Shown here in pieces: positions 8,687 to 21,849 of a DNA stretch of 64,000 nt. A model generated the notes under the pieces. The model was not told the DNA's origin. It worked only from the letters and a program-made list of their open reading frames with translations, and ran no database searches. The position numbers were made by a program, and so were the translations under genes. Position 1 is the first letter of the stretch. Every line of letters begins with the position of its first letter. The DNA comes from an uncultured Eubacteriales bacterium (lineage in GTDB: Bacteria; Bacillota; Clostridia; Lachnospirales; JAISER01), in NCBI GenBank assembly GCA_964545475.1, contig CAZJGG010000008.1, positions 666 to 64,665 of the forward strand, given 5' to 3'.

Positions 8687-10138
8687 TTATTGCGTAACCT
8701 TAGCAATATCTTTAGCAAACTGTTTTTTTTCATCAAGGTTGGACTGTCTTGCAATCATAATTCTTTGGGCCTGAGGAGAACCAGCTCCGTGCATTGATTC
8801 CGTTTTGTAGCCGACAGCCGCTGTGCCTAAAGTTAAGTTTTCAATAAGCCTTAAAATTCTCATTCTTTGCCCTGCGGATACTCCGTTTGCGCCTTTTAAG
8901 TATTTTTCAAGATAATGGGCGATTTCTTCGTTTTTAAAGTCTTTTTCAGAAGGTGCAGTTACGAAGAGCCCACCGGCAATGTCTTCCGCAAGACGGGCGA
9001 TTTCGTAAGGGTAGCGGGTTACGTTTTGTTTGCAGACGTTAGCCAAAAGCAAATCGATTATGTAATTGCCGGAAGCGGTTTTAGAGCCTTGGCAAGAACA
9101 GCCTATGCCGCAAGCGTATAAAGTTTCATTAAGGTGTGTCATTTCAATAATTTTATCTTTAACGTGGCTTGCCTTTGAAACTCCGCTGTAATCAGCCGCA
9201 ACAGCTGTTGCGCCGATTAATACATCACCAACGCCCACTTTACAACCACCGTAGCTCTGTCTGTGGTAGCCGGCGAATCTTTCAACCATCATTCCGGCAA
9301 ATTCAGTTTCGCCGTTTAAGAAAATTCTTTCGTTGGGAACAAAAACATTGTCGAAAATAACAACTGCTTCCATGCCGCCGAACTCGCTGTTGCCAACGTC
9401 AATTTCAGAACATTCAAGTTTTCTTGTGTCGCAGGATTGTCTTCCTACTATTATAATAATACCTTTTGTATCTACAGGAACTGCAAAAGATACGGCGTAG
9501 TCTTTATCTTCCGGTGTAAGAGAAATTGTAGGCATAACTAAAACTTCATGAGAGTTGCAAATGCCTGTTTGGTGAACTTTTGCGCCGTTAACTACGATAC
9601 CATCTTCACGTCTTTCAACGATTCTTAAAAACAAATCCGGGTCAGCCTGTTTGTGAGGAGGAAGCCCTCTGTCGCCTTTAGGGTCTGTCATTGCGCCGTC
9701 TACTGTTAAGTCGTTTTTCTGAACGTTCTTCATAAATTCATTAAATCTTTCGTGATACTTTGTGCCTTTAGCCTGGTCAACCTCATAAGTAGTGCTGAAA
9801 ACGGAGTTAAAAGCATCAAGACCTACACATCTTTGAAAGCAAGAACCAGTTTTTTGCCCAAGCATACGTTGCATTTTAACTTTGTTAACTAAATCTTCAG
9901 TGCTGTGGTGAATATGGGTAAAGCGGTTAATTTTTTCCCCTGTGTAATGGGAACTAACAACCATTAAATCCTGATATTCCGGGTTGTGTGCAAGGCAGTA
10001 AGTGAGCCTAACGGAATTTAAAGATGGCATAAGTATTGGGCTTTCCGTTGGGTTGCTAATTTTTTCCCCCATTAAGTACATATTAAAATTTATCTTTTTA
10101 ATACTTTCAATATATTGCTCGCCTGTCATTAAAGGCAT
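8687..10138 (-). CDS. abfD: 4-hydroxybutyryl-CoA dehydratase / vinylacetyl-CoA delta-isomerase
   Basis: AAGGAG lies 7 nt before ATG 10138. The protein is colinear with Clostridium aminobutyricum AbfD (MTGEQYIESI, KVKMQRMLGQKTGSCFQRCVGLDAFN, MTDPKGDRGL, ERFAGYHRQSYGGCKVGVGD, HGAGSPQAQRIMIARQ). Confidence 0.9.
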   Translation of the reverse strand: MPLMTGEQYIESIKKINFNMYLMGEKISNPTESPILMPSLNSVRLTYCLAHNPEYQDLMVVSSHYTGEKINRFTHIHHSTEDLVNKVKMQRMLGQKTGSCFQRCVGLDAFNSVFSTTYEVDQAKGTKYHERFNEFMKNVQKNDLTVDGAMTDPKGDRGLPPHKQADPDLFLRIVERREDGIVVNGAKVHQTGICNSHEVLVMPTISLTPEDKDYAVSFAVPVDTKGIIIIVGRQSCDTRKLECSEIDVGNSEFGGMEAVVIFDNVFVPNERIFLNGETEFAGMMVERFAGYHRQSYGGCKVGVGDVLIGATAVAADYSGVSKASHVKDKIIEMTHLNETLYACGIGCSCQGSKTASGNYIIDLLLANVCKQNVTRYPYEIARLAEDIAGGLFVTAPSEKDFKNEEIAHYLEKYLKGANGVSAGQRMRILRLIENLTLGTAAVGYKTESMHGAGSPQAQRIMIARQSNLDEKKQFAKDIAKVTQ

Positions 10139-10159
10139 AAAAACATCTCCTTTAGGCAT

Positions 10160-11416
10160 TTACGCCATTTTTCCCCAGTTTTCAATAATTTCCGGGATAA
10201 CTTTATAAAGGTCTTCAACGATTCCATAGTCTGCAATTTCAAATATCGGTGCGCCGGAATCTTTGTTTATTGCTATAATTATGTCCGAATTTTGCATTCC
10301 GGCCATATGCTGGATTGCGCCGGATATACCGCAGGCAAAATAAATTTTAGGTTTAACAGTTGTGCCTGTTTGGCCAACTTGGTGGGTATGGTCTATCCAG
10401 CCGGCATCAACAGCCGCCCTTGATGATCCTACAACGCCGCCGACTTTTTCTGCAAGCTTTTTAATAAGCTCAAAACCGTCAGCGTTTCCAAGCCCACGTC
10501 CGCCGGAGCATATAATTTCAGCATCGCAAAGAGAAACAATCTCTTTAGCCGCTTTAACAATTTCAAGAACTTGGGTTCTTAAAGCAGACTCTTCTATCTC
10601 AACGCTAAAGTCAACAACTTTGCCTTTGCGGCTTTCGTCTTTAACAAGCTTATCCATAACCCCCGGGCGAACCGTAGCCATTTGAGGGCGTCTTTTCGGG
10701 CAGATGATTGTCGCCATTATGTTGCCGCCAAAAGCAGGGCGAGTTTGCTTTAAGTTAACGTCTTTGCTTGATACGTCTATGCTTGATGTATCAAGAGTTG
10801 TATTTTTATTTAAGTATTCTACATAATTTTTAGTGTTAACATCAAGCCTTGTGCAGTCCGCAGTAAGACCAGTGTCTAACCTTGCGGCAACTCTTGGAGC
10901 TAAATCTCTGCCAATATGAGTTGCGCCGAAAAGCACGATTTCCGGCTTAAACTCTTTAATTGCACCGGTTAATGCTATTGTATAACCGTCTGTAGTATAG
11001 TTTTCAAGAAGCGGATTTTCAATTTTGTAAACTACATCTGCTCCGTAAGCATAAAGTTCATCAACTAAATGCCCTATGTTATTTCCGATTAACACAGCGC
11101 AAACGTTTCTTTCACCGATTTCTTTAGCAAGCTTAGAGCCTTCGCCTAAAAGCTCAATGGAAACGTTCATAAGCTTTCCGGCTCTTTGCTCTGCAAATAT
11201 CCAAACGTCTTTGTATTCGGATAAATCTGCAGCACCCTCGCTGGATTCGGTTTTTTCAATAGCATTAAACGGACAAGCCGGAATACATTGGGAGCAAGCT
11301 GTGCATTTTTCATTAATAACCGCAAGCTTATTAACCATATCAATTGCTTCAAACGGGCAGGCTTTAACACAAAGCCCGCAACCTTTACATTTATCGTTTA
11401 TTATATTTATCGCCAC
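10160..11416 (-). CDS. etfA: Electron transfer flavoprotein alpha subunit with an N-terminal 2x[4Fe-4S] ferredoxin domain
   Basis: It has a GTG start with a GGGGGG RBS. The N-terminus carries two CxxCxxCxxxCP motifs ([24 protein letters not shown]), followed by an EtfA/FixB core (GGRG..., [14 protein letters not shown]). Confidence 0.88.
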
Positions 11417-11427
11417 GTCTGTCCCCC

Positions 11428-12219
11428 CTATTCAATAATGTGCTTTTCGTGAAGTTTTGCTAAAAGCGTTTTTGCGGCTTCCTCAGGCGTGTCGCATTCA
11501 AGCATAATGCCTTTGCCTTTCGGCTGAGGCGTAAAAGAACGGAAAACATTTGTTGGCGAGGCTTCAAGACCAACAGTTGATAAATCAATTTTAAGCTCTT
11601 TTGCCCCCCAAATAGGAATGTTTGCGCTTACTGCGGAATAAATGCCGCTTATGTTCATATATCTTGGGGTGTTAAGCTCTTTTATAGCTGTTAAAAGGCA
11701 TGGGGTTTGAAGTTTAATAACCTCATAACCATCTTCTAAAGCCCGTTTAACAGTTATTTCTTTACCATTAATTTCAAATTCTTTAACATATGTAACCTGT
11801 GGAATATCAAGTTTTTCCGCAAGCTGTGGCCCTACTTGTGCTGTATCACCGTCAATGGCTTGACGTCCTGCAAAAATTATGTCGTAATCGCCGATTTTTT
11901 TAACAGCCGCTGCTAAAGCGTTGGAAGTCGCCCATGTGTCTGAACCACCAAGGGCTCTGTCAGAAACTAAAACACCTTCGTCTGCGCCCATTGCAAGACA
12001 TTCTATAAGTAAGTCTTTTGCTTGTGGAGGACCCATAGTTATAACTGTTATATGGGTTTCCGGGTATTTATCTTTTATTTTTAAAGCTTCTTCCAAAGCG
12101 TTTGCATCGTCATGGTTTAAAATACTTGGAACACCTTCACGAATTAAAGTGTTTTTAACCGGGTCGATTCTAACCTCGTTTGTGTCTGGAACTTGCTTTG
12201 CGCAAATTATAATTTTCAT
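11428..12219 (-). CDS. etfB: Electron transfer flavoprotein beta subunit
   Basis: [13 protein letters not shown]...VRIDP and [16 protein letters not shown] are typical of EtfB. A GGAGGAGG RBS precedes it. Confidence 0.9.
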
Positions 12220-12242
12220 GTTTTTCCTCCTCCCATATGGAA

Positions 12243-13382
12243 TTATTTGAAAACGTCGCCTGAAATAACCATTTTCATTACTTCGGAAGTACCTTCGTAA
12301 ATTTCAGTTATTTTTGCATCTCGCATCATGCGCTCTACAGGGTAGTCCTTAATATAACCGTAACCGCCGTGGAATTGAACAGCTTTCGTTGTAACATGCA
12401 TTGCGGTTTCGGAACAGAAAAGTTTTGCCTGTGCCGCTTCTACAGAGCTTGGAAGCCCTTTTTGCCGTCTGTCACAAGCTCTGTATAATAAAAGTTTTGC
12501 CGCATCTATTCTGTTTTTCATATCAGCCATTTCAAATTGAAGATACTGATTTTTTGAAAGTGGTTTGCCAAATTGCTTTCTTGATTTTAAATATTCAACG
12601 GTACAGTCAAAAGCGCCTTCGGCAATGCCTAAAGCTTGCGCCGCAATGCCAAGCCTGCCTACGTCAAGGGCAGACATTGCAATTTTAAAACCTTGACCTA
12701 ATTTGCCAAGCAAGTTTTCTTTAGGTACTTTTACGTTTTGAAATAAAAGTTCCGCCGCAATAGAACCGCGAATACCCATTTTGTTTTCTTTTTTAGGGAA
12801 AGTAAAACCTTCCATGCTTTTTTCAACTATAAATGCGCTTACGCCTTTAATTCCCTTTGATTTATCTGTCATAGCAAGGATTACGTAAGTTTCCGCTATG
12901 CCGCCGCCGGAAATAAATATTTTAGAGCCGTTTAAAAGGTAATGGTCGCCCATGTCTACCGCTCTTGTTTGAATGCCTGCCGCATCGCTTCCTGCGTTAG
13001 GCTCTGTTAGCCCAAAAGCACCAAGCTTTTTGCCTGTTAATAAATCCGGTAAATACTTTTTACGCTGTTCTTCCGTTCCGAAAGTATAAATCGGCCATGA
13101 GCAAAGAGCTACGTGGGTTTGCAAAATAACACCTGTTGCTCCGCAAACTTTTGAAATTTCCTCAATCGCCATAATATAGGCTATGTAATCTGCTCCGGCT
13201 CCGCCGTATTCTTTTGGAAGCGGCATACCCATAATTCCAAGCTTGCCGCATTGTTCTATAGTTTCCTTAGGAAATCTTGCCTGTTCGTCTATTTCAGCCG
13301 CAATGGGCGCAATTTGTTCCGCCGCAAATTTCCGTACCATTTTTTGTACAAATTCTTGCTCTTTTGTTATACTAAAATCCAT
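12243..13382 (-). CDS. bcd: Acyl-CoA dehydrogenase (butyryl-CoA dehydrogenase-like)
   Basis: The 379-aa protein has GLTEPNAGSDA and QFHGGYGY..DYPVERMMRDAKITEIYEGTSE motifs and lies adjacent to etfBA. Confidence 0.85.
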   Translation of the reverse strand: MDFSITKEQEFVQKMVRKFAAEQIAPIAAEIDEQARFPKETIEQCGKLGIMGMPLPKEYGGAGADYIAYIMAIEEISKVCGATGVILQTHVALCSWPIYTFGTEEQRKKYLPDLLTGKKLGAFGLTEPNAGSDAAGIQTRAVDMGDHYLLNGSKIFISGGGIAETYVILAMTDKSKGIKGVSAFIVEKSMEGFTFPKKENKMGIRGSIAAELLFQNVKVPKENLLGKLGQGFKIAMSALDVGRLGIAAQALGIAEGAFDCTVEYLKSRKQFGKPLSKNQYLQFEMADMKNRIDAAKLLLYRACDRRQKGLPSSVEAAQAKLFCSETAMHVTTKAVQFHGGYGYIKDYPVERMMRDAKITEIYEGTSEVMKMVISGDVFK

Positions 13383-13409
13383 TTAAAAACCTCCCTTGCT
13401 TATTTAATT

Positions 13410-14135
13410 TTACAGCCTTGTGCCGCCTGCAACGGAAAGCACATGACCGTTAACATAGCTTGAATCGTCGCTTGCAAGGAACAATACGCATTTTGCCACT
13501 TCCTCGGGTTTGCCAAGCCTGCCTAAAGGACATTTCTTACGAAGTGTATCAAGTATTTTTTCAGGAACTGAAAGAACCATTTCCGTTTCAATATAACCCG
13601 GAGCAACTGCGTTTGTTCTGATGTTTGCGCCTTTTCTTGTAAATTCTTTAGCCCATGTATATGTCATGCCGATAAGCCCTGCTTTAGTTGCGGCATAATT
13701 AGTTTGCCCAATGTTTCCGTATTCACCAATAAGAGAAGAAACGTTAACAATGTTGCCTTCGCCTTGTTCAAGCATAATAGGGGAGACAGCTTTTGTCATA
13801 AAGAAAACGCCTTTTAAATTTATATTAAGAACATAATCCCAGTCTTCTTCGCTCATTTTGCCTAAAATTGCATCTTTTATAACGCCGGCATTGTTAACTA
13901 AAACGTCGATTCTGCCGCTTTCTGCCTTAACTTGTTCAACAAAAGCGTTAACATTCTCGCCTTTTGTAACATCAGTTTTAATGTGTTTGTAATTGGGGTG
14001 TTCAAAAGTAGCTTCGCTTCTTGCGCAGGAATATACCATCTTTGCGCCTTCATTTAAAAACAATTCTGCAATAGCTTTTCCGATGCCTTTGTTGCCTCCG
14101 GTTACTATACAAACTTTTCCTTTTAACCTTTCCAT
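13410..14135 (-). CDS. Short-chain dehydrogenase/reductase (FabG-like)
   Basis: It has TGGNKGIG, NNAG and YAATKAG motifs and an AGGAGGT RBS. It is the first gene of the minus-strand operon. Confidence 0.85.
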   Translation of the reverse strand: MERLKGKVCIVTGGNKGIGKAIAELFLNEGAKMVYSCARSEATFEHPNYKHIKTDVTKGENVNAFVEQVKAESGRIDVLVNNAGVIKDAILGKMSEEDWDYVLNINLKGVFFMTKAVSPIMLEQGEGNIVNVSSLIGEYGNIGQTNYAATKAGLIGMTYTWAKEFTRKGANIRTNAVAPGYIETEMVLSVPEKILDTLRKKCPLGRLGKPEEVAKCVLFLASDDSSYVNGHVLSVAGGTRL

Positions 14136-14300
14136 GATAAAACCTCCTATATTTAATGGTATTTTAAATTTAATAATAATAATGTATTACATACGTATTC
14201 GATTTAATAAAAAGCCCAAATATCAGCATTTTGCAAAAATAAGGTGTTGTATTTTTTGTCCTATTTTGATACAATGATAAAAAACTTAGCGAGGTTCTTT

Positions 14301-15347
14301 ATGAGTGACAAAAAGTATGATAAGTCATTGTTAACCGGCAAAAAAAACGTTACGTCAAGAGATGTTGCAAAAGTTGCCGGTGTATCCCAGTCTACAGTTT
14401 CAAGAGCTCTTAACCCTAACAGCATTTTGTCGGACAAAACAAGGGAGAACGTTTTAAGCGTTATGAAAGAGCTTAATTATAAACCAAATGCCATTGCCAG
14501 AAGCCTAACAGCCCAAAAAACTAATATAATAGGCATTGTTATGGTACGGTCTGTACCTTTTTATAATGATGTTTTGAGCGAATTTACAAGAAGGCTGCAA
14601 AACATGAACAAGCAAATTCTTTTATTTAGCTGCGAGGAAGACCAGGACATAGACGATATTTTGTCTAATGTATTGCAGTACCGTGTAGACGGGCTGATTA
14701 TTGCCTCAGCAAGCCTTTCTTCCAAAATGGCAGACGAATGCGAGCAAAGCGGCACACCTGTAATCCTTTTTAACCGTTATGTTCCCAATTCCTGCGCAAG
14801 CGCTGTTTGTTGCGATAACGTAGAGGGCGGGAGAATCGCCGCAAATTTTTTACTTGACGGCGGTCATAAGCGTTTAGCTTATATCTCCGGCACTGAAAAC
14901 GCTTCCACAAATAAAGACCGCAAAAAAGGATTTATTGACAGATTGTCTGAACGAGGCATAAACCATGTTATTGTGGAGCGTGGTACATTTACATACGACA
15001 GCGGCGCAGAAGCAACAAGACGGTTACTAAAAAGTGCTGATAGACCTGATGCAATTTTTTGCGCCGACGACACAATGGCTCTTGGCGCAATGGACGTTGC
15101 AAGGCACGAATTTGGGCTTAAAATCCCTGAGGATTTGTCAATTATAGGCTTTGACGATATACAAATGGCTTCATGGCAATCCTATAATTTAACAACAGTA
15201 CGCCAACCTATGGCACGTATGTGCAATACAACTATTGAACTTTTACTTGCCCATATGAACAATGAATATCAGCAGTCAATATTACGTCTTCTTGATGTTA
15301 ACCTTATCCAAAGAGGGTCTGCCCGTTTGCCGGAAAATAAATATTAA
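14301..15347 (+). CDS. LacI family transcriptional regulator
   Basis: It has an N-terminal HTH (VTSRDVAKVAGVSQSTVSRALN) and a PBP-like effector domain. It is divergent from the SDR-bcd operon. Confidence 0.88.
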   Translation: MSDKKYDKSLLTGKKNVTSRDVAKVAGVSQSTVSRALNPNSILSDKTRENVLSVMKELNYKPNAIARSLTAQKTNIIGIVMVRSVPFYNDVLSEFTRRLQNMNKQILLFSCEEDQDIDDILSNVLQYRVDGLIIASASLSSKMADECEQSGTPVILFNRYVPNSCASAVCCDNVEGGRIAANFLLDGGHKRLAYISGTENASTNKDRKKGFIDRLSERGINHVIVERGTFTYDSGAEATRRLLKSADRPDAIFCADDTMALGAMDVARHEFGLKIPEDLSIIGFDDIQMASWQSYNLTTVRQPMARMCNTTIELLLAHMNNEYQQSILRLLDVNLIQRGSARLPENKY

Positions 15348-15360
15348 TCTTTAGCTTATT

Positions 15361-15390
15361 GGCGGTGTTTGCATAAACACCGCCTTTTTT
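15361..15390. terminator. Bidirectional terminator between the LacI gene and the convergent operon
   Basis: A GGCGGTGTTT-gcat-AAACACCGCC stem is followed by TTTTTT. Confidence 0.8.
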
Positions 15391-15396
15391 GCTGGA

Positions 15397-16515
15397 CTAA
15401 TTTTCTGTCTCGCAGTCTTCGCATACGCTCTCATAACATTGTTGCTGGCTGTATACTTGCACAAGCAAATCAAGGGCATCAAATGTAACCCATTCTTCTT
15501 TAATTTTATTATCTAAAACAGTAAAATGACTTATACCTAACACATCAACCGGTTTGCCGGAGGGCTTACCAAAAAAGCCTATACCCTCATGAAGCCCTGT
15601 CAAACGCCAGCGAACTGCTACGTCGTAGCTGTTTTCCTCGCTTCTGTCGTTTATCGTAATCCGTTCGATTCTGTACGAACCGTTGGGAATTGAGGCGAAA
15701 AAGCTTATAAGCATACCTTGAATTTGGATGTGTCCATTTAATTCTTGGTTGCAAATATAATGAACAGTTGCGTTTTCATGGTAATATTCGCAAACCATAT
15801 CAAACATCTTACAGCAATAAATATTTTTAATTATTTCAACCATGCGTTCGCCGACAGAGCTGTCTTTTGCTTTGTAGGTTTCCGGGAAAAGTTGACCTTT
15901 TGTGCTTTCGCCCAAAGATTTTATACAGGATTCTGTTAAAACGGGGCGTTTAGCCGCCATTTTCATGGCAACTTCATGGGGGCAAAGCCCGAGCTGTTTA
16001 ACAATCCACATATTGTCCCGAACAAGCCATTCTTCGTAAATACGGTTGTTTTTACCGGCGCAGTCTGCAAATGTACGGAATTCAACTTTTTTAAAAGTTG
16101 CATCACCGAAACTACTGTCTCCTAAATTAGTCGCCGTAGAATAAACACGGTGAGAAGAATAATAACCCTCGCCGCCGTCAGAAGACCAAATAACGTTTTG
16201 GGCTATAAGCTTTCTATCCGGAAAAGCAAACAGCGTTTGTAGAGTTCCGGCGATTACTCCTTGAATTCCGGTTGTAGTGCTGGAGGATGAATGTATTAAA
16301 ATATTATTGTGATAAGTTTTATAAATTAAGCCGATTGACCTTTCCTCCCATATTTTGTGGGTAATTTTAATAATGTAGTCCACATAATCAAGGTATTCGC
16401 TGTCAAAACCTTTAAAGTCCTGACTTCTTTCGGTATGTTTTATATATTCGTTGTAATCGTCACCGTTTACTGGGTTTACTTCGCTGTTTGCTCCGTAAAA
16501 TATAATATTTTCCAA
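15397..16515 (-). CDS. Tandem SnoaL/NTF2-like (ester-cyclase-like) two-domain protein of unknown function
   Basis: It has a TTG start 6 nt after AGGAGG. Two ~150-aa halves each show the SnoaL-like pattern (..IW..R........Y.......H.......G / EEW...D). The C-terminal tail is Cys-rich and acidic (CYESVCEDCETEN). Confidence 0.6.
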   Translation of the reverse strand: MENIIFYGANSEVNPVNGDDYNEYIKHTERSQDFKGFDSEYLDYVDYIIKITHKIWEERSIGLIYKTYHNNILIHSSSSTTTGIQGVIAGTLQTLFAFPDRKLIAQNVIWSSDGGEGYYSSHRVYSTATNLGDSSFGDATFKKVEFRTFADCAGKNNRIYEEWLVRDNMWIVKQLGLCPHEVAMKMAAKRPVLTESCIKSLGESTKGQLFPETYKAKDSSVGERMVEIIKNIYCCKMFDMVCEYYHENATVHYICNQELNGHIQIQGMLISFFASIPNGSYRIERITINDRSEENSYDVAVRWRLTGLHEGIGFFGKPSGKPVDVLGISHFTVLDNKIKEEWVTFDALDLLVQVYSQQQCYESVCEDCETEN

Positions 16516-16528
16516 AATGTGCCTCCTG

Positions 16529-17569
16529 TTAAGGTATTAATAATATTTTAATTCTGCATTCTTTTTTTTCTTCCATTAATTTAACAACATCTTCAAATTT
16601 TTCAAGGGGAAACCGGTGTGTAATCAGCGGTTTAACATTAAGCTTTCCAGATGAAATCATTGAAATAATGGGCTTAAAGCAGTTAGGGCTTGCTAAAACT
16701 CCGCAAAGCTCAGCATCTTTTGTTATTACAGTGTTAATTATAGCCGGCATTTCCGTACCAGAATAAAAGCTTAAAAGGGCGATTCTGCCTTGTGGGCGTA
16801 TTGCCTGAATTGCTTGGTTAAAAGCAATGTTATTGCCGGAAGTTTCAATAATTTTATCAACTCCGACACCACCTGTTTCGTTTCTTATAACTTCAACAAC
16901 GTCATTACGTTTATAATTATAAACAACGTCTGCACCGGTTTGTTTTGCAATTTCAAGCTTTTCGTCCCAGCTACCAACAGAAATTACTTTAGAAGCGCCG
17001 GAAAGTTTTGCACACTGAACTGCTAATAATCCTATAGGTCCATCGCCAATTACTGCAACAGTGTCACCGAATTTAACGTTTGCCCGTTTTACACCGTAAT
17101 ATGCAGTTGCGGCAGGCTCAATTAAAGCCCCGTCTTCAAAACCTATATTATCAGGCAGTTTATAAACATGTCTATAGGGAATTGTTAAATATTCGGCAAA
17201 TGCGCCGTCTTTGTTGCGGTAACTTCCTATTACAACTCTGTTGGGGCAAAGGTTGTAATGTCCTTCACGGCAAGTTTGGCAGCATCCGCAGCCAATTGAA
17301 ACATCCCCGGTAACACGTTCCCCAACAGTAAAACCCTTAACAAATTCGCCTACGGCTTCGATTACTCCTGTCCATTCGTGCCCCGGAATTAAGGGGAATT
17401 TTGTAAAGCCATTTTTAATATGAGGCATTTCTCCGCTTAAAAGCTCTAAATCTGTTGCACAAACGCCAACAGCCATAATTTTAACTAAAATATCATTTGG
17501 GCCGGGCACCGGCTTTGCAACTTCGGAAACCTCAATTTTGTAAGGCTCCATAAATCGTATTGCTTTCAA
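16529..17569 (-). CDS. Zinc-dependent medium-chain alcohol / sugar-alcohol dehydrogenase
   Basis: It has a TTG start after AGGAGGG. Motifs are GVCATDLE, GHEWTG, the structural-Zn site CGCCQTCREGHYNLC, and the Rossmann motif GDGPIG. Confidence 0.85.
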   Translation of the reverse strand: MKAIRFMEPYKIEVSEVAKPVPGPNDILVKIMAVGVCATDLELLSGEMPHIKNGFTKFPLIPGHEWTGVIEAVGEFVKGFTVGERVTGDVSIGCGCCQTCREGHYNLCPNRVVIGSYRNKDGAFAEYLTIPYRHVYKLPDNIGFEDGALIEPAATAYYGVKRANVKFGDTVAVIGDGPIGLLAVQCAKLSGASKVISVGSWDEKLEIAKQTGADVVYNYKRNDVVEVIRNETGGVGVDKIIETSGNNIAFNQAIQAIRPQGRIALLSFYSGTEMPAIINTVITKDAELCGVLASPNCFKPIISMISSGKLNVKPLITHRFPLEKFEDVVKLMEEKKECRIKILLIP

Positions 17570-17571
17570 AT

Positions 17572-18360
17572 CTAACCCTCCTGTTTATTATATAATATCA
17601 TTTCAGCCGTTCGCATCATTATTACTTTGCATTCAGGGCATTTTTCTTCCATTTCTTTTTTAAACGCCTGTGGGTCTCCCCCGTGCTCTGCAAAAGTGTA
17701 GAAATGGCAAGGTATAACTGCTTTTGCTCCGCAAAACAGAGCAAGTTCTGCCCCCTCCGCCGAATTTAAATTACCAAACGCCCCGTTAATTGACAAAATT
17801 GCAATATCAGGCTTTGCTTCTTTAACTTCTTCCCATTTTTCAAGCCTTAGAGCTGTATCGCCGGAAACATATATACAATTTTCATCAATTTCAATTAACA
17901 GCCCTACAGCATCTGGCGCAAGCTGCCCATGGTCTGCATATACAGCCGTTACTTTAACGCCGAAATGGGTAACGCTTTTTTCCGGTTCAAGCAAGGCTAA
18001 ATTTTTTTCTTCCCCTTTAATCTCTTTCAGAAGTTCATAACAAGTTTTATTAGCCAGAAACATTGTTTCAGGGCTATTTTTTATAATTATAGGAATTGCA
18101 TCATTATCAAAATGGTCAAAATGGTGATGAGTTGTTATATAAATATCTGCTTTTAAATCTTCCGGTGTTATAAATATAGGGGAAATGCGCTTAAAGCCTT
18201 TTATTCTGTTGCCGTAGTCCGTTAAATAAAGGTCTATGGCAACTACTGTTCCGTCACTGGATTTAATTAAGAAACCAGCTTGCCCCACCCACAGAATTAA
18301 AAGTTCTCCTTTATTTAAAACTTTGTTATAAAAATTTTCAAGGCATTTATTATCTTGCAT
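17572..18360 (-). CDS. MBL-fold metallo-hydrolase (UlaG-like lactonase family)
   Basis: It has an ITTHHHFDHFD metal motif and a WVGQAGFLIK N-terminus. Confidence 0.75.
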   Translation of the reverse strand: MQDNKCLENFYNKVLNKGELLILWVGQAGFLIKSSDGTVVAIDLYLTDYGNRIKGFKRISPIFITPEDLKADIYITTHHHFDHFDNDAIPIIIKNSPETMFLANKTCYELLKEIKGEEKNLALLEPEKSVTHFGVKVTAVYADHGQLAPDAVGLLIEIDENCIYVSGDTALRLEKWEEVKEAKPDIAILSINGAFGNLNSAEGAELALFCGAKAVIPCHFYTFAEHGGDPQAFKKEMEEKCPECKVIMMRTAEMILYNKQEG

Positions 18361-18380
18361 ATATATTACTTCTTTCGTTT

Positions 18381-19223
18381 TTAATATAGAGCGTTTTCAA
18401 GGTCTAAATATCTTTCGTCAAATTGAACTCTGTATTCTTTTTCGCTTCCGGCAAGCCCCCAGAACAAATAAGCTTCGCACCCAGGAAGGGCAAAAGAGGT
18501 GTGGAAGCCTTTTGGAAGCGCAATTGCTCCGTTATCGTCTTCAACGGCGTACATTTCGTCCCAGCGGTTGCCGTTTTCATCATAATCATAACTTAACTGA
18601 ATAGCAGCACCGCCTGATAAACCTCTTACACGCATAGAAAAAATTTCATCAAGAGGAAATTCCTTTTCAGTAACAATATCATGTCTGTGAGCCGGAAAGC
18701 CTATCCAGCCGCCGGGAACGGAAACGGATTCGCCGACAATAAGCCTTTGTGTAATATCTCCGTTATTTTTGCCTTTTGGTGCAAAAATCGAGCGATATTT
18801 GCGTTTCCATTGTTTTGCCCCCGGTTCTGTTTCAATAACCTTTGATGGCGGACAGAAGAATGGTGCATTGCCGCCATTGGCATCGCAGTGGAAAATTCTT
18901 GCGTGCATACCGTTTACAGTATTAATTTTCATTGAAGCTCCGGCTGGAATGTAAACAGCTGTAGGCATATCATCAAATACACAAGTTCTTGTGCCGGAAA
19001 TGCCGTCTAAAATCTTTTCTCCGTTTGCGTAAACTTCCCCTGTAAAATCGCCGGATTGAAGAACTAAAACGGATTCTTGCCCGGGGATTTCAAAATTGTA
19101 GGAAGCGCCTTTGTTAAGCCATAGAACTGAAAAATTAAGGATTTCAAGCCCTGCTTTTTTATAATCAATTATTTGCTGAAAGCCCTCTTTTTCTTCAAAT
19201 TTGTAAAAGCTTGAATAAGCCAT
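18381..19223 (-). CDS. IolB-family cupin (5-deoxy-glucuronate isomerase-like)
   Basis: The C-terminal half resembles B. subtilis IolB (GGWIGFPAHRHD versus GNWSSYPPHKHD, and the LPKGFHTS region). Confidence 0.6.
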   Translation of the reverse strand: MAYSSFYKFEEKEGFQQIIDYKKAGLEILNFSVLWLNKGASYNFEIPGQESVLVLQSGDFTGEVYANGEKILDGISGTRTCVFDDMPTAVYIPAGASMKINTVNGMHARIFHCDANGGNAPFFCPPSKVIETEPGAKQWKRKYRSIFAPKGKNNGDITQRLIVGESVSVPGGWIGFPAHRHDIVTEKEFPLDEIFSMRVRGLSGGAAIQLSYDYDENGNRWDEMYAVEDDNGAIALPKGFHTSFALPGCEAYLFWGLAGSEKEYRVQFDERYLDLENALY

Positions 19224-19228
19224 ATGTA

Positions 19229-20203
19229 TTACCCCTTTTTTATTTTTTTTATATCATTAACCTGTGGGTTTACTAAGTACGTTGGTTTTTTCCCGGATAA
19301 AACTTCGCAAATTCCTTGCGCGGACTGAGTAGCCATTGCAACAAGGGCGTTGTCTGTAAGCGCCGCATTATGGGGCGAAAGCAAAACATTTGGAAGAGTA
19401 AACAGCGGTGAGTCCGCTTTAGGTGGTTCGTCGTTAAAAACGTCAAGAGCCGCTCCCTTAATAATATTTTGGGTTAAAGCCTCATAAAGGTCAGCTTCGT
19501 TAATAATTCCGCCTCTTGCGGCGTTTATTATAAAGGCTGATTTTTTCATTTTTAAAAGCTGATTTTTGCCAATTAAGTTTTGGGTCTCTTTTGTAAGCGG
19601 CAAATGTAAGCTAATAAAGTCTGAAATTTCTAAAATCTCCTCAAGAGTTTCAACTTTTTCAACCCCTGCATCTTTTGCTTGTTCCTTAGTAATAAATGGG
19701 TCGTAGGCTAAAATTTCCATATCAAGAGCTTTACATTTTTTTGCAAGCAGTCTTGCAATTCTTCCAAAGCCCAAAAGACCTAATTTTTTACCAGAAAGTT
19801 CTATATTTTCAACTTGTGTGCGCATTGCAAAATTATTATTTCTAACCTCTTTATCCATTTGAAGCAAATGTTTCGATAATGCTAAAATCATACAAAGTGA
19901 ATGTTCTGCAACAGCGTTTACATTGGATTCCGGCGCATTAACCACCATAATGCCACGTCTTGTTGCGGCTTCAACGTCGATATTGTCTACTCCTATGCCG
20001 TGCTTGCCGATAACCTTTAAGTTGGGCATAGCCGCCATTATTTCATCGGTAATTTTAGCGGAGCGTATTAACACGCCGTCTGCTTCTTTACCTTTTTCTA
20101 TAATAGAGCTTGCTTCCTTGCCGCCGTTTTCAATAACCTCTGCAACCTGATTAAGTATTTCGATTCCTGCTGGGTTAATTGGCTCTGTTAAAAGAACTTT
20201 CAT
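19229..20203 (-). CDS. D-isomer-specific 2-hydroxyacid dehydrogenase (PGDH/glyoxylate reductase-like)
   Basis: It has GLLGFGRIARLLA NAD-binding, NAARGG and LSPHNAA motifs. Its ATG shares one base with the upstream stop codon (TAATG). Confidence 0.85.
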   Translation of the reverse strand: MKVLLTEPINPAGIEILNQVAEVIENGGKEASSIIEKGKEADGVLIRSAKITDEIMAAMPNLKVIGKHGIGVDNIDVEAATRRGIMVVNAPESNVNAVAEHSLCMILALSKHLLQMDKEVRNNNFAMRTQVENIELSGKKLGLLGFGRIARLLAKKCKALDMEILAYDPFITKEQAKDAGVEKVETLEEILEISDFISLHLPLTKETQNLIGKNQLLKMKKSAFIINAARGGIINEADLYEALTQNIIKGAALDVFNDEPPKADSPLFTLPNVLLSPHNAALTDNALVAMATQSAQGICEVLSGKKPTYLVNPQVNDIKKIKKG

Positions 20204-20970
20204 TATTTTTTCAGCTCCTTAACGTAATTTTTTGCAACACCAGACATCATGCCCTGGTCAGAACCGATTATTATGTAATTTGCGCCCATTTCAATAAAGT
20301 GTTTAGCTTTTTCAATTGTCCCAACAAAAATCCCGGCTGTTTTACCTGCTTTAACAGTTTTTTGAATAACCGTTTCAATGGCATTAACAACGGTAGGGTG
20401 GGAGTCATTTCCTATAACACCATAAGACTGAGACAAATCCATAGGTCCAATAAAAACAACGTCGATTGCCGGAATTGTAAGTATTTGGTCTAGGTTTTCA
20501 ACAGATGTAACAGTTTCGCAATGAGAGACTATTAATGTGTTTTCGTTGGAAAGCTTTATGTATTCGTTTTTGTCTATAAAGCCGTATCCTGCCGCTCTTA
20601 CGGAAGGGGAGAAGCCTCTGTTTCCCTCCGGGGTATATTTGACACTGTCTGCAAGCTGTTTAGCTTCTGCATACGTATCCACATTTGGTACTTGAACGCC
20701 AAACGCACCGGCATCAAGAGCTTGGAGCACTTCAACAGGCTGGTTTTCTCTAACTCTTACTATAGGAACAATTGAAACGGCGGAAGCGGCACGCATTGTG
20801 TTAACCATGGCTTCTCGGCTCATTGCCACATGCTCATTGTCTAGCACGAAAAAATCAAACCCGGAAAGCCCAATTATTTCAACAATGGCTGGGTCTGCCG
20901 TTTTAACAAATGTACCGATAACTGGCTGGTTTTGCGTAAGTTTTTTCTTAACCTCATTTTGTTTAATCAT
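20203..20970 (-). CDS. HpcH/HpaI family 2-keto-3-deoxy-acid aldolase
   Basis: The 255-aa protein has G.F......P...E.....GFDF...D.EH, VRV and GPMDLS motifs typical of HpcH/YfaU/GarL aldolases. Confidence 0.8.
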   Translation of the reverse strand: MIKQNEVKKKLTQNQPVIGTFVKTADPAIVEIIGLSGFDFFVLDNEHVAMSREAMVNTMRAASAVSIVPIVRVRENQPVEVLQALDAGAFGVQVPNVDTYAEAKQLADSVKYTPEGNRGFSPSVRAAGYGFIDKNEYIKLSNENTLIVSHCETVTSVENLDQILTIPAIDVVFIGPMDLSQSYGVIGNDSHPTVVNAIETVIQKTVKAGKTAGIFVGTIEKAKHFIEMGANYIIIGSDQGMMSGVAKNYVKELKK

Positions 20971-21041
20971 ATAAGCTCACTCCATTTATAAAATCTAAAA
21001 TGATTACGTATTCATAAACTGTAAAAAAAATAATTTTGAAG

Positions 21042-21704
21042 TTATTGATTTGCAACTAAAATTTCAAATTCATTCTTATTAAAGTTAATAATTCCTTCTT
21101 TTCGCATTTTGCAAAGCTCGTTGCACATTGCGCTTCTGTCTACACATAGGTAACTTGCAAGTTCTTCCCTGTTATAGGGGATTGTAAATTTATTTGCGGC
21201 ACCCCTATGATATTCAAAAAATAGAAGAAGTTTATCTCTAGTTGTACGTTTAGAAAGTATTTCTATTTTTTTATTTAGAGATAAATTATTTTTCGATATT
21301 ATGAATAGCAAATTTTCTACAAGCCTTTTATGATATTCGCATGAATTAGAACATGTGTTAACAATTTTTTTGTAATCTATAAAAAGAATTTCGCAGTTGC
21401 TAAGAGCCTTAACAGATATGGGGCTGCGGGAAACGCCGGCACAAGCGAAAACTTCTCCAAAGATACCAGAAGCGTACAGTTCCTTAATTACTTCGGTATT
21501 ATCTTGATTTTCCTTTATAATTGAAACACTACCTGTAATTACAATGCCTACAGAGCTTACATTATCGCCATATCTTAAAACAATGTCGTCTTTTTCATAA
21601 CTTTCGCTTTTGACAAAAAGGCAATTCAATAGCTTTTCAAATTTCGAAAAAGAAATACCGCCAAACAAATAGTTACTTTTCAATATTTCAAAGTATTTTC
21701 TCAT
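21042..21704 (-). CDS. Crp/Fnr family transcriptional regulator
   Basis: AAGGTGAG precedes ATG 21704. It has a cNMP-binding-like N-terminal domain and a C-terminal HTH (REELASYLCVDRSAMCNELCKMRKEG). Confidence 0.8.
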   Translation of the reverse strand: MRKYFEILKSNYLFGGISFSKFEKLLNCLFVKSESYEKDDIVLRYGDNVSSVGIVITGSVSIIKENQDNTEVIKELYASGIFGEVFACAGVSRSPISVKALSNCEILFIDYKKIVNTCSNSCEYHKRLVENLLFIISKNNLSLNKKIEILSKRTTRDKLLLFFEYHRGAANKFTIPYNREELASYLCVDRSAMCNELCKMRKEGIINFNKNEFEILVANQ

Positions 21705-21849
21705 AAAACTCACCTTTTGTTGTATATACAACAGATACGTTGTAATTATTATATATCATATCTTATAAAAATACAAGGGTTTTTTTATGAAAATTATTTA
21801 TTTTGTCAATTAAAAAGATTTTTTAAATTTATAAAATAAACCTTCCGTT

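Follow-up and report, generated by a model that had tools for sequence, protein, structure and literature searches.

What does a catabolic operon that holds a pyruvate aldolase, a protein with two fused SnoaL domains and no recognisable dehydratase break down, and how? The question is raised by six genes in a 64,000-nucleotide stretch of DNA (the window; contig CAZJGG010000008.1 of assembly GCA_964545475.1) from an uncultured Eubacteriales bacterium. A preliminary description, made from the letters of the window alone, read them as a candidate for an undescribed sugar or sugar-acid pathway in which the tandem SnoaL protein may supply the missing dehydratase. Our analysis upholds the catabolic operon, whose pathway ends in a class II pyruvate aldolase, and suggests that it is a real catabolic unit that probably breaks a ring-shaped or sugar-like acid down to pyruvate. 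No described pathway matching the gene set was found in the searchable literature, as the preliminary description had anticipated, nor was any published description of the cluster itself. The enzyme families are all known; the pathway, and the catabolic role of tandem SnoaL proteins, are undescribed.

All six open reading frames (ORFs) lie on the minus strand and are transcribed in the order from the aldolase to the SnoaL protein, here called SnoaL-A (Table 1). Successive genes are separated by −1, 5, 20, 2 and 13 nt, so the layout first described, with a 1-nt overlap at 20203 and other gaps of 2–20 nt, is exact. Each of the six starts follows a Shine-Dalgarno-like site, and the gaps and ribosome-binding sites are compatible with a single transcription unit, behind whose last gene stands a strong predicted terminator. 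Pfam concurs with each of the six family assignments, and the catalytic motifs are intact. Judged by these sequence signals, the six genes are one operon under putative LacI control.

The predicted operator in front of the aldolase gene, TGATTACGTATTCA, is one mismatch away from the perfect palindrome TGAATACGTATTCA. The 3.05-Mb genome contains two sites with at most one mismatch to this palindrome: the one in the window and an identical 14-mer on another contig, C17, where it lies between dctP and dctQ of a locus encoding a tripartite ATP-independent periplasmic (TRAP) transporter and SnoaL-like proteins. Many unrelated loci also have the palindrome, with zero or one mismatch, immediately in front of SnoaL genes, and Peribacillus muralis has three such sites; by our own estimate, not a program's output, about 0.2 such matches would be expected by chance in the 1.3 Mb searched. 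A CG-centred palindrome near the promoter and an adjacent LacI gene together make up a predicted LacI-operator unit, and the LacI protein is 44% identical to that of the Clostridioides difficile SnoaL cassette. The LacI ORF as listed opens with GTG, which puts the helix-turn-helix at residues 39–82; the true start is probably the ATG at 14301, which would give the usual N-terminal helix-turn-helix. Flanking LacI and Crp/Fnr regulators had been reported, and both are present, with the refinement that LacI and the operon converge and that the LacI gene has its probable start at 14301 and not 14244. No terminator was predicted in the 71-nt gap between the Crp/Fnr gene and the operon, and the relation of this regulator to the operon is uncertain. 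On this sequence evidence the operon, with a putative LacI-type operator to itself, belongs to a regulon type shared across genomes.

The partners of this predicted regulon lie elsewhere in the genome. Contig C27 encodes SnoaL-B, a second tandem SnoaL protein only remotely related to SnoaL-A, and a sodium symporter, respectively 71% and 59% identical to those of C. difficile, and C17 encodes a TRAP system (DctPQM) with the identical operator. The earlier statement that there is no transporter is therefore true of the window and not of the genome. A search in front of the C27 genes for SnoaL-B and the symporter gave no operator, and an operator-like site with two mismatches on C13, near a glycerate kinase gene, was rejected because it lies between leuA and rseC and is unrelated. 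On this arrangement the six genes are the enzyme half of a putative dispersed regulon, with the entry functions on C27 and C17.

Both partner loci have further genes of their own. At C27:24000-37693 (locus L103) an AraC gene, SnoaL-B and the sodium symporter stand near the contig end beside a second AraC gene, a PfkB ketohexokinase-like kinase, three GFO/IDH/MocA dehydrogenases and a xylose-isomerase-like TIM barrel, a stretch that looks like a cyclitol or anhydro-sugar operon. At C17:11981-18825 (L020:7981-14825) a HisD paralogue (41% identical to a copy on C4) stands opposite an IclR gene, and the TRAP genes are accompanied by four half-size SnoaL-like ORFs of 168–186 aa that resemble two split tandems.

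Table 1. Annotated features of the operon and its flanks (positions in the window).
Feature	Position	Strand	Family assignment and context
Class II (metal-dependent) pyruvate aldolase, HpcH/HpaI family, 255 aa	20203..20970	-	Pfam PF03328; operon gene 1
D-isomer-specific 2-hydroxyacid dehydrogenase (2-HADH), 324 aa	19229..20203	-	Pfam PF02826 and PF00389
KduI/IolB-family bicupin, presumed ketol/alpha-hydroxyaldehyde isomerase, 280 aa	18381..19223	-	Pfam PF04962
Metallo-beta-lactamase-fold (MBL) hydrolase, UPF0173-like, 262 aa	17572..18360	-	Pfam Lactamase_B_3
Zn-dependent medium-chain dehydrogenase (Zn-ADH), 346 aa	16529..17569	-	Pfam ADH_N, ADH_zinc_N, Glu_dehyd_C
Tandem SnoaL/NTF2-fold protein SnoaL-A, 372 aa	15397..16515	-	Pfam SnoaL, two stretches; last gene of the operon
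LacI-type operator (predicted), TGATTACGTATTCA	21001..21014		14 bp, 30 nt upstream of the aldolase ATG
GC-rich hairpin terminator, 10 bp	15361..15384		Between the convergent LacI and SnoaL-A genes
LacI-family repressor, likely regulator	14244..15347	+	Pfam LacI and Peripla_BP; convergent with the operon
Crp/Fnr-family regulator	21042..21731	-	Pfam cNMP_binding and HTH_Crp_2; directly upstream, same strand
Operon of short-chain dehydrogenase/reductase (SDR), acyl-CoA dehydrogenase (ACAD), EtfB, EtfA (ferredoxin-fused) and AbfD	8687..14135	-	Pfam

The enzymes themselves point to pyruvate-forming catabolism. The aldolase matches PF03328 at 116 bits against a gathering score of 25, and its best NCBIfam and PDB matches are GarL, HpaI and YfaU, all under their equivalog cut-offs (186.6, 186.1, 181.6 and 146.4 bits against 393, 368.8, 406.75 and 441). 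Inspection places His47, Arg72, Glu152 and an Asp178-like residue at positions that we take to map onto HpaI residues, and the domain together with the metal and Arg/His positions marks it as a class II aldolase of the HpcH/HpaI family. Homologues with 52–63% identity recur beside partner genes. In the 2-HADH the catalytic Arg, Glu and His positions are present, and in related loci (L104, L105, L106, L112, L114 and L115) its gene always adjoins that of the aldolase, the IolB-like cupin or both. The cupin, which scores 132 bits to PF04962 and 120.2 bits to the IolB equivalog TIGR04378 (cut-off 205), is the sole KduI-family member found in the genome. The MBL protein has the motif HHHFDH and was first called UlaG-like, a likeness that proved weak: it reaches 42.6 bits against a cut-off of 306, over residues 58–141 only, and stands nearer to UPF0173 hydrolases, its closest PDB entries being TM_1162 and Igni_1254. 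It is a candidate lactonase or ring/C-C hydrolase. The Zn-ADH has the catalytic GHE motif and a four-Cys structural zinc site, resembles IolM, threonine dehydrogenase and polyol dehydrogenases, and scores 232.5 bits to the model of IolM (scyllo-inosose 3-dehydrogenase; cut-off 450).

The neighbourhoods of the IolB-like subfamily indicate that this block of enzymes is not peculiar to one genome. Through its members in anaerobes (42–55% identity), which proved rare in a phylum-wide sample (3 of 400 genomes), clusters were located in Natroniella acetigena, Desulfitibacter alkalitolerans, Desulfobaculum bizertense, Alkalibacter mobilis, two further genomes (G188 and G362) and locus L086. Aldolase, 2-HADH and cupin occur together in every one of these clusters except that of Alkalibacter, which has the 2-HADH and IolB-like genes only, and L086, which is cut at its end; shared enzymes are 42–63% identical, and gene order varies. 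The co-occurrence check proposed in the preliminary description thus came out positive, the set recurring in distantly related anaerobes. Accompanying genes vary and include TRAP or sodium:solute symporter family (SSF) transporters, LacI, a malic enzyme of the oxaloacetate-decarboxylating type, a URO-D/MtaA-like protein, a small cupin and a creatininase-family protein. Each of the clusters (L104, L105, L106, L112, L114, L086 and the one in the window) has at least one of two things, an aldehyde:ferredoxin oxidoreductase and the Zn-ADH/MBL pair, and these may be alternative solutions for one aldehyde-to-acid step. In Natroniella the MBL, SnoaL-A and Zn-ADH genes are adjacent in that order, and Zn-ADH and aldolase genes stand beside SnoaL-A and SnoaL-B in L021, L022 and L074.

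The creatininase-family partner adds a link to inositol chemistry. In Natroniella its best named match is IolN (3-dehydro-scyllo-inosose hydrolase; 175.6 bits against 245). The genome studied here encodes a relative (138 bits against the same cut-off) at C52:19407-21666, where it adjoins a URO-D/MtaA-like gene at the very end of the contig; in Natroniella, Desulfitibacter, G188 and G362 the full cluster contains the same pair, and the assembly break at the end of C52 conceals the genes upstream. As for the substrate, PDB entry 7bbr and its neighbours, which bind sugar acids, pantoate or erythronate (PMC11668362), are the nearest structures to the relatives' TRAP binding proteins. Two of the related loci have a further feature in common: in Desulfobaculum (L106:2699-3952) and Alkalibacter (L115:5680-8893) the 2-HADH and IolB-like genes are joined by LarA-like genes, of the nickel-pincer hydroxyacid racemase family, and by Asp/Glu-racemase genes, with a gap-pgk pair nearby in both.

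The same comparison bears on the dehydratase. Its absence from the operon was rightly noted: no enolase-superfamily or IlvD/Edd-type dehydratase was found in the window operon, nor in L104, L105, L106, L112 or L114. The proposal that SnoaL-A fills the gap fares less well. The clusters L105, L106, L112 and L114 have no SnoaL gene and equally lack a canonical dehydratase, so SnoaL does not fill the missing step in those genomes.

Where, then, would SnoaL-A act? Its two SnoaL domains are borne out by Pfam (71.7 bits against 28.4, in two stretches) and by a confident AlphaFold2 model (predicted local distance difference test score 89.6) with two alpha+beta barrels at residues 44–175 and 221–356. 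A Cys/acid-rich tail, earlier singled out as a notable trait, is not conserved among homologues, and the idea that it forms a metal site was dropped. Foldseek gave Lsd19/MonB as the best tandem match to the model (about 10% identity; E = 5e-10 to 3rga) and aligned single domains with SnoaL-like proteins at template modelling (TM) scores of up to ~0.77 on the target's length. Sequence and fold searches of the PDB yielded generic NTF2 matches only, and the Lsd19/MonB likeness of the model does not reveal function. Homologues with 50–63% identity are frequent among anaerobes, for example C. difficile, C. oceanicum, Acidaminobacter, Caloramator, Natroniella and Brachyspira, and turn up on many metagenome contigs from gut and sediment; in a phylum-wide sample SnoaL-A proved rare (1 of 400 other genomes), and a single-sequence scan of genome contigs returned five loci only.

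When 91 SnoaL-A loci were dereplicated at 90% identity to 44 groups, SnoaL-B was a neighbour in 28 groups, a sodium:solute symporter in 25, an acid-type major facilitator superfamily (MFS) transporter in 25 and LacI in 23. The commonest enzyme partners were the HpcH aldolase (5/44) and Zn-ADH (4/44). The MFS transporter of the cassette is closest to aromatic-acid and metabolite:H+ symporters. This association, mainly with transporters and SnoaL-B, argues for an entry step rather than one in mid-pathway. No polyketide synthase was noticed near SnoaL-A in the annotated parts of the 44 groups, where most neighbour families were not searched against Pfam; the context consists of transporters, LacI and catabolic enzymes and is not that of a SnoaL-type polyketide cyclase.

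Several of the SnoaL loci have further recurring neighbours. A tandem pair of M19 (renal-dipeptidase-like) genes precedes the cassette symporter in two dereplicated groups (L086:5710-8007 and L074:3102-5432) and has no role in the scheme proposed below. A tetratricopeptide repeat (TPR) protein of ~410 aa adjoins the cassette in 7/44 groups (for example L016:5551-6783, L004:8475-9713 and L074:14196-15428). The P. muralis locus (L005, 3096-18255) is an aerobic version, with its three operator copies (0–1 mismatch each) and genes for LacI, an SDR, an Fe-dependent alcohol dehydrogenase, an aldehyde dehydrogenase, an unknown protein, an alpha/beta hydrolase, an HpcH aldolase, three tandem SnoaL paralogues, a HisD-like dehydrogenase and MFS carriers.

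The family matches to IolM, IolN and IolB point to the logic of cyclitol degradation, and we tentatively favour, at somewhat less than an even chance, a route of this type, in which a ring would be oxidised and opened by hydrolysis, a chain end converted to a 2-oxoacid and the product cleaved by the aldolase. The 3-deoxy position would come from CH2 groups of the ring, and this would dispense with a dehydratase and explain why none is present in any of the clusters. The pathway would begin with import of a polyhydroxylated cyclic carboxylic acid; an acid is suggested by the sugar-acid-type TRAP binding proteins and the aromatic-acid-type MFS carriers. SnoaL-A and SnoaL-B would act at entry as cofactor-free NTF2 enzymes that shift the ring between its enone and its beta-hydroxyketone or keto-tautomer forms through hydration, dehydration or tautomerisation, and a retro-aldol role is also conceivable. 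Scytalone dehydratase is one of the NTF2 enzymes with known chemistry of this kind. The IolM-like Zn-ADH would then oxidise ring hydroxyls to a 1,3-diketone, which the C52 IolN-like enzyme or the MBL protein, both candidates, would open hydrolytically. The IolB-like cupin would turn the ketol end into an alpha-hydroxyaldehyde, and the Zn-ADH and MBL protein would take the aldehyde through lactol and lactone to the carboxylate, a step for which the aldehyde:ferredoxin oxidoreductase may serve in relatives. The 2-HADH would yield the 2-oxoacid, which the HpcH aldolase would split into pyruvate and a second oxo-acid; pyruvate could then enter the adjacent butyrate-type acyl-CoA module. Anaerobic phloroglucinol breakdown offers a precedent: there an amide-hydrolase-like enzyme splits a cyclic diketone into products that enter butyrate fermentation (PMC10470551).

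Which ring acid would fit is more doubtful. The leading candidate, though an unlikely one, is an acid of the shikimate family (quinate, shikimate, dehydroshikimate or gallate). With such a C7 acid the aldolase would cleave 4-carboxy-4-hydroxy-2-oxoadipate to pyruvate and oxaloacetate, which would give the malic enzyme of related clusters a role. Gallate would require two two-electron oxidations, matching clusters with only two oxidoreductases, and quinate four. In its most specific form, which we consider unlikely, the regulon would be an oxygen-independent hydrolytic pathway for shikimate-family C7 acids that runs via ring hydration or tautomerisation by the tandem NTF2 enzymes, a 3,5-diketo intermediate, a C-C hydrolase and 4-carboxy-4-hydroxy-2-oxoadipate.

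Several observations confound the cyclitol-type route and its proposed substrate. None of the six operon proteins reaches an NCBIfam equivalog cut-off, and the equivalog scores of cluster members from the window, C52 and Natroniella all stay below theirs. The IolN-like gene lies outside the window operon, at a contig end, and none occurs within 10 kb of the cluster in Desulfobaculum. The scheme assigns no role to the URO-D/MtaA-like and small cupin genes of the full clusters, and it explains poorly the many genomes that have the SnoaL and transporter cassette only. LacI regulators are usually sensors of sugars and not of aromatic acids. The assignment of a substrate class rests on chemical bookkeeping, and we know of no documented case in which an HpcH-family enzyme cleaves a 4-carboxy-4-hydroxy-2-oxoacid. 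All of these points weigh against the preferred reading.

The route from sugar to lactone to aldonate put forward at the outset remains a live, if unlikely, rival. Zn-ADH would form a lactone from a sugar or deoxy-sugar, the MBL protein would open it to an aldonate, SnoaL-A would dehydrate this without phosphorylation to a 2-keto-3-deoxy acid, and the aldolase would release pyruvate and an aldehyde. The adjacency of the Zn-ADH and MBL genes in the window, L086, L104, L106, L112 and L114 suits this sequence of steps, as do the match of Zn-ADH to Glu_dehyd_C and an aldolase nearest to GarL and YfaU; the aldehyde:ferredoxin oxidoreductase of relatives recalls archaeal non-phosphorylative Entner-Doudoroff routes, and their TRAP binding proteins resemble sugar-acid binders (PMC11668362). 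The IolM-like Zn-ADH and the IolN-like hydrolase of relatives fit cyclitol ring chemistry better, however, and the route would leave the IolB-like cupin, the IolN-like hydrolase, the 2-HADH and the malic enzyme without a role. Its central dehydration is also hard to reconcile with L105, L106, L112 and L114, which lack SnoaL and still have no enolase-type or IlvD-type dehydratase, and with the ties of SnoaL-A chiefly to transporters and SnoaL-B. A second rival, which we rate as quite unlikely, is a route for uronates or aldarates. Here a hexuronate, or 5-keto-4-deoxyuronate from unsaturated uronates, would pass through 5-keto-4-deoxy-glucarate to pyruvate and tartronate semialdehyde, and then via hydroxypyruvate to D-glycerate, by way of Zn-ADH with the MBL protein or aldehyde:ferredoxin oxidoreductase, the GarL-like aldolase, the IolB-like cupin, the 2-HADH and a glycerate kinase. 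The best matches of the aldolase are 2-dehydro-3-deoxyglucarate aldolases, the cupin is of the KduI family, hydroxypyruvate reductase is a classical 2-HADH activity, the genome encodes a glycerate kinase with a CdaR-type sugar-diacid regulator, and TRAP and MFS acid transporters suit an acid. Yet the aldolase falls far below the GarL cut-off (186 against 393 bits), no operator was found near the glycerate kinase, SnoaL-A, SnoaL-B, the IolN-like hydrolase and the malic enzyme would be idle, and gut Firmicutes reportedly use GudD, GarD, GudL and GarR for aldarates (PMC11775122).

A neutral inositol could also be the substrate of a variant of the Thermotoga-type pathway (IolG, IolM and IolN), with inositol or inosose imported by the symporter, oxidised and hydrolysed to a keto-aldonate and passed to the remaining enzymes. 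The IolM-, IolN- and IolB-like scores are as expected of such a pathway, SSF and sugar-porter MFS families include inositol carriers, and on C27 SnoaL-B and the symporter adjoin the three GFO/IDH/MocA dehydrogenases, the TIM barrel and the PfkB kinase. We regard it as very unlikely: the TRAP and acid-type MFS transporters favour a carboxylate, a keto-aldonate derived from inositol has no 3-deoxy position and would still require a dehydratase, of which there is none, and no match to IolD or IolE attains its cut-off (best scores 214 bits against 715 and 41 against 290 in this 95% complete genome, in a search for iol genes that left IolC and IolJ outside its scope). That SnoaL-A simply landed at the end of an unrelated five-gene operon, outside its chemistry, would agree with its location away from these enzymes in most genomes and with several enzyme clusters that lack it; this is nevertheless highly improbable, given that SnoaL-A stands among the same enzymes in three more independent contexts (Natroniella; L086; L021 with L074), that the operon bears the operator type found before SnoaL cassettes elsewhere, and that its gene lies 13 nt from that of Zn-ADH with a good ribosome-binding site. 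Pantothenate or pantoate, sialic or ulosonic acids, ascorbate, 4-O-methylglucuronate and mycosporine-like compounds were also considered as substrates and not adopted, each leaving core genes unexplained.

For the cyclitol-type route, a fate for the pyruvate is suggested by the SDR-ACAD-Etf-AbfD operon beyond the LacI gene, which is probably a linked fermentative redox sink because the same module abuts Zn-ADH, aldolase and SnoaL genes in L074 and L021. In L074 acyl-CoA dehydrogenase (84% identical), EtfB, ferredoxin-fused EtfA, 3-hydroxyacyl-CoA dehydrogenase, Zn-ADH and aldolase form one string adjoining the SnoaL cassette, and in L021 the order is EtfA, 3-hydroxyacyl-CoA dehydrogenase, Zn-ADH, aldolase, SnoaL-A, SnoaL-B. 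In the window, TACATACGTATTCG (14188-14201) lies between the LacI gene and this operon, which diverge from each other; it has three mismatches to the operator and a perfect ATACGTAT core and is not statistically significant alone.

Comparison with known systems shows what is shared and what is not. In the Thermotoga maritima myo-inositol pathway (IolG, IolM, IolN and IolO; NCBIfam NF041097 and NF041098) a Zn-dependent dehydrogenase forms a diketo-cyclitol that a creatininase-family hydrolase opens, and among named families its IolM and IolN give cluster members their best or nearly best matches, under equivalog cut-offs. Unlike that system, the cluster is without IolG and IolO, adds the HpcH aldolase, 2-HADH, IolB-like cupin, MBL protein and SnoaL, and has transporters that suggest an acid and not neutral inositol. 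Bacillus-type IolB (5-deoxy-glucuronate isomerase) and KduI belong to the same bicupin family as the window cupin and likely share its alpha-hydroxyaldehyde/ketol interconversion, but the operon is not a canonical iol operon, its genome falling short of the IolB, IolD and IolE models. GarL, HpaI and YfaU share the fold and the metal and Arg/His positions of the window aldolase and act on 4-hydroxy-2-oxoacids, in pathways whose upstream dehydratases the operon lacks. The lower pathway of gallate and protocatechuate 4,5-cleavage would have the same end, from a C7 diacid to pyruvate and oxaloacetate; it uses an oxygen-dependent dioxygenase and an aldolase of another fold, whereas the opening proposed here, like that end, is wholly inferred and would be hydrolytic and oxygen-independent. 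The phloroglucinol pathway of Clostridium scatologenes (PMC10470551) likewise belongs to anaerobic gut and soil Firmicutes and joins cyclic 1,3-diketone cleavage to butyrate fermentation. Its enzymes differ at every step (an SDR reductase, a 'cyclase'-family hydrolase and a BKACE lyase, with aldolase and SnoaL absent), and it was set aside as an identity and kept as an analogy. Lsd19 and MonBI-MonBII (polyether epoxide hydrolases/cyclases) and the SnoaL/AknH aldol cyclases have the same tandem or paired NTF2-fold architecture as SnoaL-A, from which they differ in sequence (about 10% identity) and in context, polyketide genes being absent here and transporters, LacI and catabolic enzymes standing in their place. 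Three other candidate matches fell away: the Dysosmobacter route from inositol to butyrate relies on canonical iol genes; GudL, a glucarate aldolase of the gut, is DapA-like rather than HpcH; and the L-threonate 3-dehydrogenase cluster works with kinases.

The gene set and the SnoaL/transporter cassette span many gut and sediment anaerobes, including C. difficile and Brachyspira, and the searchable literature assigns a function to neither. Once the substrate is identified, models of gut fermentation would gain a nutrient route. If the proposed catabolic role is correct, it would be the first in primary metabolism for the large family of tandem SnoaL/NTF2 proteins. Should the hydroaromatic reading hold as well, it would account for the fermentation of quinate-type plant acids to acetate and butyrate, without O2, by strict anaerobes of gut and sediment.

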